Positions 40,688-63,262 of a stretch of 64,000 nt of DNA are shown here, piece by piece. The DNA lies in contig NMRA01000008.1 in assembly GCA_002633005.1 (NCBI GenBank), positions 2,029,942-2,093,941 of the forward strand. The letters run 5' to 3'. The translations under genes and the position numbers were made by a program. The notes under the pieces are model-generated. The model searched no databases and had not been told where the DNA came from. It saw nothing but the letters and a program-made list of their open reading frames with translations. Origin of the DNA: Phoronis australis (taxonomy: Eukaryota > Animalia > Phoronida). Position 1 is the first letter of the stretch. Each line of letters opens with the position of its first letter.

Positions 40688-40762
40688 CTACACTGGGACT
40701 TTCCACTGTTTGTACAAGTAGTCCACTTGCTTAGCACTCAAGCTGCATTTGTAAATCCTCAA
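40688..40762 (-). CDS. Terminal exon: end of LamG domain and stop
   Basis: ttatttc[26 protein letters not shown]; completes the G-x-M-x-D-L-R-I-Y motif. Confidence 0.88.
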   Translation of the reverse strand: MRIYKCSLSAKQVDYLYKQWKVPV

Positions 40763-60263: not shown

Positions 60264-63262
60264 TTGCGCGCGCACGTGCGTACTTCGAGGCCATTGGCCC
60301 ATAGTACAGCAAATCGATATGCGAAGATATAGTCCCAAGAAAATCCTCTGATGAACGTATCCAGTAACATATCCATCAGAGGAGAAATACAAGACAGTAA
60401 TTTATCAGTGATTAAAAGAATTTGCANNNNNNNNNNNNNNNNNNNNNNNNNNNNNNNNNNNNNNNNNNNNNNNNNACAGCAATGGGTTTATGTCAAGACT
60501 GAATTAGCAACAGAGATGTAATGTGATAAGCTGTTACATATTTCTTAAGACATTTTCGGGACTGGGTGAGGAACTCAAGACGTAAAGCTTAATAATTTGC
60601 CAAGTGTATCAAAGAAATGGCATAAGAATATTTATTGAAACTAAAAAATGAATAACAGTTACAGAACACTCAAAATTCCACGTTATAGACATACTCTTGT
60701 AGTTGTAGCGACAGCAGACGATAATGTAGGCCTAGTTCTTGGGGTGGTCTATTCCAATAGGAAGCGATGAATCAGCGCGGCTTTGCGTGATTTTGCATTT
60801 CACATCATAAAGAGTTCCATAGCAACTCGAGTATGAGTGTCAGATTTGAGTACGTTTGGAGTCTACTCGAAATCCGACATTAGATACGCTTTTTTGAGTA
60901 CGACTCCAGTGAGCACGATTTTGAGTATGAAATCTCGAGTATGAGTATGAGTCTGAGTACGGAGATTGGAGACCGGGCCCAGGTTGGTGCAGAAATCTTC
61001 CCAGACTTACCGGGTATGTTCATTAGGTCACATGATATGGCCACAGGTGGCGTGCTGACCAGACTTAAAAATGTTTGCGATATACATTTCCACTGCGGTT
61101 TAAGAATTACGTATTTATATGCTAACAGTGACTTATAAAACCCAATGAACAGGGTGTTTTTTAAATATTTTTTAAATTGTTTAAACCTGTGTAACACGTG
61201 TCGCTACGATAAAACAAAATCCATTCATTCATCCATTCCTTCATTCGTTCATTCATTGTATAGAAAGTTTGTTTATCTTAAACACGGCAAAGTGGGGACA
61301 CGCATGCATGCATGCGCATGTGACTCTGCATGTACACTGAATTAGTTTATCGACGTATATTCCGTTTTTCATGTCTATCATGAACGTTTGTCTTTTGATC
61401 ACGACACCCTGCCGTAACCTGAACCCAACACTCAGGCGCTGACCTGTCACACACTCGCCACGTATTGTCTCCCGGGCGACTTAGTCAATTACTGTTGATT
61501 TGCTTGTCTTAGTCCAATACACGTGCAGTGGTACAGCCGCGCACACACGCAGTTCACAGAGTCTGCTTGAGTTGATTGTCTGGCACTTCGTTTGCTTATA
61601 CTGCTGTGCGTGAACTTGGAATCCTGCTTAATCTCAAGATTAAGCGGAAGTGAGTGTTTGTGAACTTGGGTAAAAAGGGGAAATTTTTTGTTCGGTGAAA
61701 AGAATTTTTGTAATTATTTGCCTCGCGATCAACTATTTTCTCCTTTACCGTAACTTGTGTCGCTGAACCGGAGGAATATGTGAATGGCCAAATTTCTTAT
61801 TGTTTGGTGAAACTGATCGCCCGTAGTTGAAAAGGTTGTTAAAATTGACATTATTTTATTCAAATATAACTTGATTTAGTGCAGTGCAATTTTTCATGAA
61901 CATGAACATGTTTATTTGAGTGAACTTGTCAAGTTGCCTCGCGTATTCCAAATTCACGCAACACTCACTTCCGCTTAATCTTGAGATTAAGCAGGATTCC
62001 AAGTTCACGTACAGCAATACAACCTGGTTTTCAGAGGTTCCGTGTCTTTCAGTATGCACTTCCCAAAGCATATCGTAGGAGTAAATCTTTAAAGTGCTTA
62101 AAACGACCGTCTACCTTGTTTTCACTGACAAGTAACTACATTCTTGTCAGCTTCATAAAACCTCTCTTTATAGCACTGCAAACGTGATTTCAATATCCCA
62201 AAAACGAAAAATCAGAAGAAAAGCGACTTCAGTTAAAGGTTTTTAAGCTCCACGGACATGAGTGCAACGTATGAGCGTATCTAGCGTCAGTGTATGCCCA
62301 CCAACACGCGAGTTTCGTGCAATAATTTGTGCCATATCCGCGCTTCTCCGTCTGATGTCCCACGGGAAAGTGAAAAGAGCCATCGTGGTCAAATACTGAC
62401 CATGTGATATGTTTCAACCAATAAATGCTCGTAACTCGAGACCAGCTTATTAACATATCGTCAGATAGTGTTTGCAGGGGTTCTAAATTGACAGCTAATG
62501 GACTCCTGGTGTTGGTTTTGATGTTTTTTGTTATGAAATTGATGATTTAAGTTTGAGGACAGCTAACTGTCAAAGCATGGCAAGTGGTGTTCAGATCATT
62601 TAGCAAGTGACGAGCTTTGACTTCAACGGAAATGCAAAATCTTTATGAACGAACCGTAAAAATAACTGGTGAAGAATTTGCTTCTGTTTCAGTGGCAGAG
62701 AACCACTTTGAACAAGGCAATTTAGTTTGTTTTTCGCGTTCCATGTCTCTTTATAGATGACCCCGCAGCGTCATTTTTGAAATCCAATGTTTTGGCTCAT
62801 ATTTGGGGGGCGGGTGTTTCCTAATGCTGCGAGTTAGTGTTCTTATTATACTTCATAAAACCGTGGGCCGAATGGAGTCGATTGGTTGCTTCAGTGCCAA
62901 GGTACAGCTCCGCAACTTTGGATGGACGTAATTAGCGGTTCGTGAGACTTGAAAAAAGAGACGCATACTTACGACATTTAGTTACGGTTCTCCATCCCTT
63001 GCCGGGATACCCAGCTTCTTTACATTTTTTTGCAAATTCTTCCAAACTGCCACACGCAGCCTTCTTAGCCTCTGGCAAGTTGTGTTCTAAAGCACACACG
63101 TCATATTTACAGTTCTCGAAATATTCACTAAATTTCACTGAGTTCATGCACTCTTGGAAGGGACCACTTGGGTTACTTGTTGCACCACAATATTCGTTCG
63201 TGAATATGGCCGTACGCAAAGCCCCGGAGCACGATGGGATTTTCGTTCTGGGTGCTTGACAT
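40688..63262 (-). CDS. Giant extracellular multidomain protein: C8 - TILa/EGF-like - 56x TSP1 - 3x CBM14-like - LamG/ConA-like (Pif-like C-terminus); 5' incomplete
   Basis: 13 exons totalling 11,534 nt. All joins from 59699 to the stop are GT-AG and phase-consistent once the single N at 46791 is removed. Only the C8-to-EGF join (phase 1 vs 0) needs a missing exon. Confidence 0.85.
41338..41510. mobile_element. Palindromic element whose two arms are Penelope-type hammerhead-like motifs
   Basis: ~60-bp inverted arms. Right arm CAGAGGA-T-GATATT-tgatt-AATGTC-GAAAC-GTCG; left arm (- strand) CTGAGGA-T-G...AATATC-GAAAC-ATCG. Confidence 0.55.
41622..41804 (-). CDS. Exon: LamG/ConA-like domain part 3
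   Basis: [20 protein letters not shown]...[20 protein letters not shown]; ctttAG / GTAAGT; 183 nt, phase 0-0. Confidence 0.92.
42027..42133 (-). CDS. Exon: LamG/ConA-like domain part 2
   Basis: [36 protein letters not shown]; ctcaacAG / GTTCGT; 107 nt, phase 1-0. Confidence 0.8.
43257..43496 (-). CDS. Exon: LamG/ConA-like domain part 1
   Basis: [52 protein letters not shown]...SVSFWYK...GLLANGDC; ttccAG / GTGAGT; 240 nt, phase 1-1. Confidence 0.9.
43844..44011 (-). CDS. Exon: third, degenerate CBM14-like module
   Basis: [21 protein letters not shown]...[16 protein letters not shown]; gtgtAG / GTAAGT; 168 nt, phase 1-1. Confidence 0.83.
44219..44425 (-). CDS. Exon: second CBM14-like module + Thr-rich linker
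   Basis: [10 protein letters not shown]...[41 protein letters not shown]; ttgcAG / GTAAAT; 207 nt, phase 1-1. Confidence 0.87.
44750..45034 (-). mobile_element. Partial inverted copy of the 16367-16773 MITE
   Basis: Ends in aaagatttgaccccgggccct; internal blocks match by eye. Confidence 0.6.
45165..45374 (-). CDS. Exon: chitin-binding type-2 (CBM14/peritrophin-A) domain, Pif-like
   Basis: [55 protein letters not shown]; gttttAG / GTATGT; 210 nt, phase 1-1. Confidence 0.88.
45667..45851 (-). CDS. Exon: TSP1 repeat 56 (this frame is absent from the ORF track)
   Basis: [61 protein letters not shown]; ctttcAG / GTAAGC; 185 nt, phase 2-1. Confidence 0.9.
45950..46089. mobile_element. 140-bp foldback element
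   Basis: aatcctacactcgtct...atgatatgggcaaaactt / aagttttgcccaggtcat...agacgagtgtaggatt. Confidence 0.7.
46721..46869 (-). CDS. Exon: TSP1 repeat 55 (contains a spurious single N at 46791)
   Basis: [48 protein letters not shown] once the N is removed; tttctAG / GTATGG; phase 1-2. Confidence 0.85.
47760..48472. mobile_element. 713-bp non-autonomous foldback DNA transposon with long imperfect TIRs and a CACGAT duplication
   Basis: tatggaaacccacagcggaaaaaatccaggacac... / ...gtgtcctggaatttttccgcttggttttccata; complementarity extends >140 bp; cacgat at 47754-47759 and 48473-48478. Confidence 0.8.
48793..58175 (-). CDS. Giant 9,383-nt exon encoding 53 tandem TSP1 repeats
   Basis: Open frame of 3127 full codons; ~59-aa unit CP(I/V)xGxWSxWxxWSxCSGTCGxGxRxRxRxCTNPxPxxGGKxCxG; tttgcAG acceptor at 58176-58177, GTAAGT donor below 48793; phase 2-1; units counted by hand. 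Confidence 0.95.
58331..58490 (-). CDS. Exon: first TSP1 repeat
   Basis: [44 protein letters not shown]; ttccAG / GTAAGT; 160 nt, phase 1-2. Confidence 0.92.
59522..59699 (-). CDS. Exon: TILa-like + EGF-like module
   Basis: [16 protein letters not shown]...[29 protein letters not shown]; tttcAG / GTAAGT; 178 nt, phase 0-1. Confidence 0.88.
60168..60262. repeat. (TG)n microsatellite (a smaller one at ~18862-18912)
   Basis: Imperfect TG dinucleotide run. Confidence 0.95.
60427..60475. other. Assembly gap (49 N)
   Basis: Run of N. Confidence 1.
61602..62016. mobile_element. 415-bp MITE with ~65-bp TIRs and an ATAC duplication
   Basis: tgctgtgcgtgaacttggaatcctgcttaatctcaagattaagcggaagtgagtgtt / aacactcacttccgcttaatcttgagattaagcaggattccaagttcacgtacagca; atac on both flanks. 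Confidence 0.8.
62973..63262 (-). CDS. Exon: C8 domain (VWD-associated; mucin/FCGBP/zonadhesin type)
   Basis: [33 protein letters not shown]...[16 protein letters not shown]...WRTVTKC; ttttccAG / GTAAGT; 290 nt, phase 2-1. Confidence 0.9.

Follow-up and report, generated by a model that had tools for sequence, protein, structure and literature searches.

A giant expressed gene of Phoronis australis with a 56-repeat TSP1 rod, a Pif/LamG3-type tail and a probable mucin/FCGBP-type front end

The minus strand of the window, a 64,000-nucleotide stretch of the Phoronis australis genome (NMRA01000008.1, positions 2,029,942 to 2,093,941), contains a real, expressed gene. Twelve of its exons (E2 to E13) encode a stop-free 3,747 amino acids, or 3,843 with E1, matching the ∼3,840 visible amino acids given in the first-pass annotation. 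Pfam profile matches with per-model cut-offs were used for the domain calls in E1 to E13 and gave the module order TILa-EGF, 56 TSP1, one CBM14, two CBM14-like and LamG3 from E2 to E13 (Table 1). RNA reads demonstrated the exon chain from the 3′ end of the rod to the stop codon, and the E1-E2-E3-E4 joints are predicted. On balance, this giant protein, with 3,750 amino acids or more, is best explained as a long spacer, likely secreted. Its tail would grip chitin through the CBM14 modules, its probable FCGBP/mucin-type head (C8/TILa/EGF) would bind a protein network, the role that VWA plays in Pif/BMSP, and the rod would separate these two binding ends. The protein would be placed in an extracellular chitin-protein layer, e.g., a tube, shell or cuticle; its secretion is presumed for a gene whose 5′ end falls beyond the stretch covered by the window. 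Two toolkits that are usually studied apart, the assembly modules of mucin/FCGBP and the chitin tail of Pif/LamG3 known from shells and tubes, here likely belong to one gene. Neither the individual parts nor the rod-tail layout is new; the head, through its putative joint, would be the new element.

Table 1. Exons and assembly gap of the Phoronis australis gene (positions within the window)
Feature	Position	Strand	Content
E1	63262-62973	-	C8 domain, Pfam E value 1.4e-15; ends in phase 1; putative connection to other exons
49-N assembly gap	60427-60475	.	Within E1-E2 interval; may conceal expected TIL/linker exon
E2	59699-59522	-	TILa, Pfam 2.6e-4 (under cut-off); EGF_3, 1.2e-10
E3	58490-58331	-	TSP1 repeat 1, Pfam TSP_1 3.5e-11; predicted phase agrees with E2 and E4
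E4	58175-48793	-	Giant exon, 9,383 bp, 53 TSP1 repeats
E5	46869-46721	-	TSP1 repeat 55; contains N at 46791
E6	45851-45667	-	TSP1 repeat 56
E7	45374-45165	-	CBM14 chitin-binding domain 1, Pfam CBM_14 1.7e-6, 28.5 bits (cut-off, 22.1)
E8	44425-44219	-	CBM14-like module 2 (0.0017; 18.9 bits, under cut-off); Thr-rich linker of ∼12 residues
E9	44011-43844	-	CBM14-like module 3, degenerate, 4 Cys, no Pfam match
E10	43496-43257	-	LamG3, first part
E11	42133-42027	-	LamG3, middle
E12	41804-41622	-	Laminin_G_3, Pfam 3.4e-10 from E12 alone
E13	40762-40688	-	LamG3, end, and stop codon

The tail and known rod-plus-tail proteins

By sequence comparison, the tail is of the Pif/LamG3 type. CBM_14 and CBM_14-like modules were followed by LG, a feature of Pif/BMSP, and the CB and LG domains that define LamG3 were both present. 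In Bai 2023, LamG3 is defined by these two domains without VWA; no VWA was found by Pfam in the visible 3,843 amino acids, the 5′ end of the gene lying beyond the window. One of the three CBM14 modules passed the Pfam cut-off, and those of E8 and E9 aligned with the same modules in homolog tails. Identity to Pif-type tails was 23 to 31% with the Cys pattern preserved, and the spliced LamG matched Pfam-positive LamG3 proteins with E values of 3e-21 and 6e-23. For a homolog tail, the domain atlas yielded only LamG leads scoring <0.9. A word-index search with the LamG exon found nothing among 39 candidates limited to 2,000 amino acids, which is weak evidence. The first-pass assignment of a Pif/BMSP-type CBM14-LamG tail spliced to the rod thus held, given the homology to "PIF-like" and Lingula proteins and RNA support for all nine junctions. 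Chitin binding by the tail is predicted from CBM14.

The tree with Pif-type proteins that had been proposed as a check placed the tail with CBM14-LamG proteins of Lingula and Ridgeia (support, 96/93), apart from the molluscan PIF-like rows; one Mytilus row lay beside this group on a long branch, and the Branchiostoma LamG3 proteins were left out. A single clade of this tail with molluscan rod tails was rejected by AU tests on LG+G4 quick trees (P = 0.004 for heterodont bivalves and 0.006 for abalone). On sequence grounds, the tail points to non-molluscan lophotrochozoans, and given these groupings and P values the rod likely arose separately from the molluscan rods.

The first-pass annotation knew of no named protein with this architecture. 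For the rod and tail this did not stand: 13 of the 120 listed proteins, from bivalves and abalone, already combine a long TSP1 rod with a CBM14-LamG-type tail, and one such protein is in print, so the layout is not new. That protein, the Tridacna shell matrix protein Tcr_684094, has 2,816 amino acids, VWA, 35 Pfam TSP1 rows and a chitin-binding domain. Together with "SCO-spondin-like" proteins of Mercenaria, Mactra and Mya (∼3,700 amino acids), it resembles the Phoronis protein in size and in having ∼50 tandem TSP1, then three CBM14(-like) modules, then a LamG-like domain. The heterodont proteins, however, have a VWA head in place of C8/TILa/EGF, 58-amino-acid units (59 in Phoronis) that are older and mostly collinear, and tails only 24 to 27% identical to the Phoronis tail. 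Haliotis proteins share a TSP1 array (up to 51) and the tail type, but carry a VWA and Ig head and 64-amino-acid units and form a separate clade. A VWA-TSP1-chitin-ConA protein, idb_25730, is also reported from abalone nacre. Clam and abalone giants labelled "SCO-spondin-like" are a misnamed class of Pif-type rod proteins.

Among other relatives, Pif/BMSP and LamG3 proteins share the CBM14, CBM14-like and LG tail (PMC11291548; PMC10543319), and in the PifCCP subfamily, too, a spacer made of repeats separates head from tail. The Phoronis protein differs from Pif/BMSP in its spacer of 56 TSP1, its mucin-type head, the lack of a visible VWA and the lack of an acidic Pif80-like region (model pI, 8.5). 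The nearest tail (31% identity) was that of Lingula XP_013387925.1 (EGF-2 sushi-CBM14-LamG; 504 amino acids, apparently incomplete), which has a similar starting EGF and the same Thr linker, but two sushi domains in place of the TSP1 rod.

Possible location and role

A TSP1 repeat spans ∼5 nm, and 56 repeats would give a rod of ∼250 to 300 nm. The chitin-scaffold tether proposed in the first-pass annotation is compatible with shell and tube proteomes (PMC8217771, PMC6003135, PMC13425148, PMC8476170), although its novelty is weakened by the bivalve and abalone proteins. The Lingula shell proteome includes CBM14+LamG proteins of ∼390 amino acids and a 1,508-amino-acid TSP1+LamG protein (PMC13425148), and a tubeworm tube proteome is described as rich in LamG, VWA, ChtBD2 and TSP1. 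Counting against a matrix role, Bai et al. report that expression in shell-forming tissue is not high for many Pif/LamG3 genes.

The same protein could instead act in mucus or the gut lining, as a gland-secreted linker joining a peritrophic-type membrane of chitin, or feeding mucus, to mucin/FCGBP networks with no skeletal role. We regard this as fairly unlikely, although several parallels exist. The D-assembly mucin Ci-GFM1 of the Ciona gut membrane carries a chitin-binding domain (PMC6109156); Hydra HyTSR1, with 48 TSRs and sixth among the listed rod relatives, occurs in granular mucous gland cells (PMC4820225); VWD-C8-TIL is frequent in aquatic adhesives (PMC8621496); and LamG3 proteins are also reported in the shell-less Branchiostoma, a protein of which was closest to 6 of the 10 non-homogenised repeats. 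However, shells and tubes are the source of the proteomic records covered for this type of tail, and a PTS region and a cystine knot are absent.

A broader extension of the spacer reading is tentative, and we consider it unlikely in full. The tail of three CBM14 modules and LamG3 would be a portable chitin anchor to which a rod of ∼50 TSP1 was added at least three times (in the Phoronis lineage, heterodont bivalves and abalone), giving a convergent ruler of ∼250 to 300 nm that sets the spacing within chitin-protein layers; in Phoronis, VWA would have been exchanged for a self-assembling mucin/FCGBP D-assembly head, giving a single molecule that cross-links chitin fibres to a mucin-type polymer. 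The rods have ∼50 repeats of differing units (56 × 59, 50 × 58 and 51 × 64 amino acids), in a search that favored proteins near that size. As the unit lengths are unequal and the tails do not form one clade, a length-selected spacer is a testable idea.

The front end of the gene

The front end is likely a mucin/FCGBP-type module standing where VWA is usual, a candidate new feature. E1 matched FCGBP, MUC2, MUC5AC and VWF sequences in the PDB, and its C8 identity was confirmed in the domain atlas. The EGF of E2 resembled that at the start of Lingula XP_013387925.1 (score of 69 against a best of 57 in 1,000 shuffles); the same EGF type is common, with ten copies in an unrelated Hydractinia protein. 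No VWD was visible within the 64-kb window, which excludes the 5′ end of the gene.

The C8 exon noted upstream in the first-pass annotation is present, but the phase of E1 does not match the best E2 acceptor (59699; score, 8.8), which is in phase 0. E1 therefore falls outside the chain of phase-consistent exons, to which it could belong only through a missing linker exon or through use of the weak in-frame acceptor at 59743 (score, 0.8). A Pfam scan of 14 open frames in 62972-59700 (3.27 kb, with the N gap) gave no readable TIL or linker exon. Look-alike TIL motifs near 59900-59780 were weak and were rejected.

TILa normally comes after C8-TIL. This argues against C8 (perhaps with E2) belonging to a separate upstream FCGBP/zonadhesin-like gene, in which case the rod gene would have another or shorter head and encode an ordinary long LamG3/Pif-like protein. 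We consider such an arrangement quite improbable: TIL co-occurs with C8 in atlas clusters, E2, E3 and E4 are in phase with consensus splice sites, including the E2 donor, scans of three intervals revealed no first exon with a signal peptide, and acceptor 59743 would permit a direct in-frame E1-E2 splice. The phase mismatch across a gapped interval with no readable TIL exon favors two genes, as does the absence of C8 from all 259 relatives (0/120 listed rod relatives and 0/139 CBM14 relatives), which leaves the C8-tail fusion without confirmation in a second species. A C8-exon word-index search (16 candidates, limited to 2,000 amino acids) also found nothing, again weak evidence. Literature searches, which covered few subscription journals, turned up no TSP1-CBM14-LamG protein with a C8/TIL head.

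FCGBP and zonadhesin have tandem VWD-C8-TIL-TILa units and a GDPH self-cleavage site. With these proteins, gel-forming mucins, Ci-GFM1 and SCO-spondin, the probable mucin/FCGBP-type front end has C8 and TILa modules in common; Ci-GFM1 combines D assemblies with a chitin-binding domain, and SCO-spondin combines them with TSP1 repeats. The Phoronis protein differs from this set in its uninterrupted TSP1 array and Pif-type tail, and its visible part lacks a cystine knot, PTS and LDLa. A gel-forming mucin was rejected, as the protein, with LamG3 at its RNA-confirmed end, has neither a C-terminal cystine knot nor a PTS region. Gel-forming mucins have several VWD-C8-TIL assemblies; one C8 and one TILa were seen in the part of the gene inside the window, and any VWD would lie outside it. 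SCO-spondin, with its described layout of VWD-C8-TIL, LDLa, TSP1 interleaved with TIL, and a cystine knot at the C terminus (PMC7333891), was likewise set aside.

Transcripts and the repeat array

Transcription was from the minus strand, at levels differing widely among samples. In run X1, each of the nine tail junctions was supported by 26 to 138 reads, with all first mates on the plus strand; these included the E7 junctions (64 and 68 reads) and the E10 junctions (138 and 77 reads). The E4-E5 joint (48793/46869), for which an RNA check had been suggested, was spanned by 26 reads with 20 distinct starts, which also back the 3′ end and donor of the giant exon. The N at 46791 was absent from 26 of 26 reads and is a spurious insertion; the frame holds only with this base removed, and with this correction the exon chain from EGF through 56 TSP1 and three CBM14-like modules to LamG is phase-consistent.

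The E4 repeats were mostly 59 amino acids (177 bp), with a homogenised core at 50010-57811. Among the 50 177-bp units compared, no pair exceeded 97% identity, and a crude count gave a dN/dS of ∼0.2 among units 7 to 46. The array is therefore neither chance nor assembly duplication, and the rod grew through tandem duplication within one exon under purifying selection. That transcripts mostly end past the giant exon (CQRKL-stop), a separate mRNA encoding the tail, or that the array is an assembly artefact, is very improbable: the frame does reach a stop just beyond the E4 donor and poly(A)-like hexamers occur in the following intron, but the spanning reads cross this joint, the intron bin depth was 3.4 (exon, 48 to 72), within what the exon's 19 bases account for, and no two units were identical.

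The repeats contained 107 WxxW and 55 CxxS/TC motifs, from which C-mannose and O-fucose are predicted. A single tail joint was seen in the X4 RNA contigs. An AATAAA was located at 40607, and RNA read depth dropped nearby.

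Gene model and transcript evidence

Six-frame reading of the window revealed, on the minus strand, a very long open frame and a series of Cys-rich exons. The resulting 13-exon model (E1 to E13) has GT-AG sites at all introns and joins a C8/TILa/EGF head, a TSP1 rod and a tail of CBM14 or CBM14-like modules and LamG3. E2 to E13 translate to 3,747 amino acids without a stop, provided that a single N at 46791 is removed; adding the C8 exon E1 gives 3,843 (pI 8.5), matching the ~3,840 visible to the first-pass annotation, whose count of 56 TSP1 repeats was also reproduced by Pfam. 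No Pfam match was obtained for E9. After splicing, the LamG domain aligned with Pfam-positive LamG3 proteins (E values, 3e-21 and 6e-23).

Features of the window and the basis of each assignment
Feature	Exon or location	Position	Strand	Basis
Open frame, 3,143 codons		58213-48785	minus	Six-frame reading
C8	E1		minus	Pfam
TILa + EGF	E2		minus	Pfam
TSP1, 1 + 53 + 2 = 56	E3, E4, E5-E6		minus	Pfam
CBM14, above cut-off	E7		minus	Pfam
CBM14, below cut-off	E8		minus	Pfam
Laminin_G_3	E12		minus	Pfam
Array of 177-bp units, 76% match	E4 core	50010-57811
18-bp and 22-bp tandem repeats, CA microsatellite		48208-48316, 47843-47925, 60168-60263
Both-strand reads, many loose ends	Introns	45425-45476, 44805-44870, 47100-47640		Every RNA run
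Strong acceptor (7.8) and donor (11.5), out of reading frame	E1-E2 interval	61011-61203	minus
Direct repeat, roughly 230 bp	Upstream of E1	~63560-63990		By eye
NDRG/Ndr-family exon		15266-15520	plus	Pfam Ndr, E 6e-8

RNA data from four runs carrying the same species label were aligned to positions 40300-49400. In run X1, each of the nine predicted junctions in this region was supported by 26-138 reads, whose first mates lay on the plus strand, as expected for RNA of the minus strand. The contested 48793/46869 joint, directly after the giant exon E4, was crossed by 26 X1 reads with 20 different starts, establishing that E4 is spliced to the CBM14-LamG tail. Transcripts could instead read past E4 to the stop at CQRKL*; depth was 3.4 in the first intron bin, which is accounted for by the 19 exon bases in that bin, and thus read-through is at most minor. 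The N at 46791 was absent from the reads (26/26). Run X2 contained seven of the nine joints (2-10 reads each) and X3 a single one. Depth over E10 was 68, 4.2 and 0.5 in X1, X2 and X3, respectively, from similar amounts of reads sampled, a sign of strongly sample-dependent expression. The gene is real and expressed, and its tail junctions are confirmed. Many fixed differences separated reads and assembly across 40300-49400, and the RNA animals therefore represent a diverged population or a close relative under the same label; 16 differing codons (9 synonymous, 7 nonsynonymous) were counted from the 40 rows listed, with 301 more rows outside the count. The intronic intervals with both-strand reads are likely interspersed repeats.

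Relatives and origin of the rod and tail

The first-pass annotation knew of no precedent for this architecture, and for rod plus tail that does not hold: the combination is known. E4 as query gave 760 matches; among the 120 listed, 13 carried the same tail, none carried C8, and one had two VWD and ~60 TSP1 with the tail absent. Proteins of ~3,700 amino acids from Mercenaria, Mactra and Mya have a signal-like start, VWA, ~50 TSP1 and the same tail, and in Haliotis proteins this tail is preceded by VWA, Ig and up to 51 TSP1. Eight bivalve or abalone proteins named automatically as "SCO-spondin-like" (P0001, P0003-P0005, P0007, P0045, P0051 and P0101) consist of long TSP1 arrays and a Pif-type CBM14-LamG tail, with a VWA head in most; Pfam fails to detect their LamG. 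E7 was also searched, index-free, against 1.84 billion representatives, giving 139 matches, with LamG in 21, TSP1 in 4 and C8 in none; none was close to the window along the entire tail (best, ~30%). IgGFc_binding, the FCGBP N-terminal domain, accompanies TSP1 arrays in Lingula and molluscan proteins (P0016, P0027, P0050, P0052, P0066, P0099 and P0102), joining FCGBP parts to TSP1 rods in other lineages as well. P0117 of Hydractinia (2,832 amino acids; NIDO, 17 TSP1, CBM14 and 16 EGF) offers a cnidarian example of a further TSP1-chitin linker layout.

Within E4, 50 of 53 units are exactly 59 amino acids long, and their alignment includes columns of invariant Cys, Trp, Arg and Gly. The core shows block duplications (highest lag, 12); no pair of units exceeds 97% identity, and a crude dN/dS is 0.2. 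The model contains 107 WxxW and 55 CxxS/TC motifs, at which C-mannose and O-fucose, respectively, are usually attached.

Phylogenetic analysis of 31 tails (leaving aside two LamG-bearing matches and four near-duplicate Haliotis rows) placed the window in a group (support, 96/93) that also includes proteins of Lingula and Ridgeia and two others, separate from molluscan PIF-like and rod proteins. AU tests (LG+G4, groups fixed beforehand; long branches are a caveat) rejected one clade of the window with bivalve rods (p 0.004), with abalone rods (p 0.006) or of all rods (p 0.0002). Because of these rejections, and because 46 of the 56 window repeats have another window repeat as nearest relative, the rods likely arose separately; a single ancestral origin followed by several losses is less probable. 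The similar repeat counts among rods are partly due to the length window of the search.

Probable linkage of the head exons

The single phase-consistent chain claimed earlier stood for E2 to E13, with E2, E3 and E4 mutually in phase. E1 ends in phase 1, a mismatch with the good, phase 0 acceptor of E2 at 59699 (score, 8.8, against 5.5-17.8 at known sites). Direct in-frame splicing would be possible through a weak acceptor at 59743, which scores 0.8. No TIL exon was readable in the 3.27-kb E1-E2 interval, which contains a 49-N gap, and three intervals scanned for an ATG exon encoding a hydrophobic leader contained none. The acceptor-donor pair at 61011-61203 is possibly a noncoding or cryptic exon. 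The C8 of E1 resembles those of FCGBP, MUC2, MUC5AC and VWF (12 PDB sequences).

Among the tails found, that of Lingula XP_013387925.1 is nearest (31% identity). This protein, which lacks an evident signal peptide, starts with an EGF similar to that of E2, followed by two sushi domains. The motif occurred in 2 of 296 fetched proteins, the second an unrelated Hydractinia protein. This start lends independent support to the E2-tail link, modest because the EGF type is common. On sequence grounds, E2 very probably belongs with the rod and tail, and E1 quite probably belongs with the remainder.

Proposed role and published counterparts

The product would most likely be a secreted, glycosylated, disulfide-bonded rod of ~250-300 nm, given ~5 nm per TSP1 repeat. 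The tail would grip chitin and the mucin/FCGBP-type head, replacing VWA, would bind partner proteins or itself, so that the protein could act as spacer and cross-linker in a chitin-protein layer. Relatives of the tail are recorded in shells and tubes, which tips the balance slightly toward tube, shell or cuticle and away from gut or mucus. Identity as a gel-forming mucin or as SCO-spondin was rejected. We propose that the protein works like long Pif/LamG3 proteins, with Pif/BMSP membership a candidate only.

PMC11291548 describes Pif/BMSP as a clade of VWA proteins that also carry CBM14, CBM14-like and LG domains and gives sushi as the spacers of PifCCP, and PMC10543319 assigns CB+LG without VWA to LamG3, in lophotrochozoans and Branchiostoma. 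The latter also describes Tcr_684094 (2,816 amino acids; a VWA-like and a chitin-binding domain and numerous TSP1), placed in Tridacna shell matrix by PMC8217771. PMC6003135 and PMC13425148 report idb_25730 from abalone nacre and CBM14+LamG and TSP1+LamG proteins in Lingula shell, respectively. No C8/TIL head with TSP1 rod and CBM14-LamG tail is described in the literature searched, whose supplements could contain one; the putatively linked C8/TILa/EGF head is the new part. Elsewhere in the window, the NDRG/Ndr-family exon is probably part of a multi-exon plus-strand neighbor gene within positions 1-40000.
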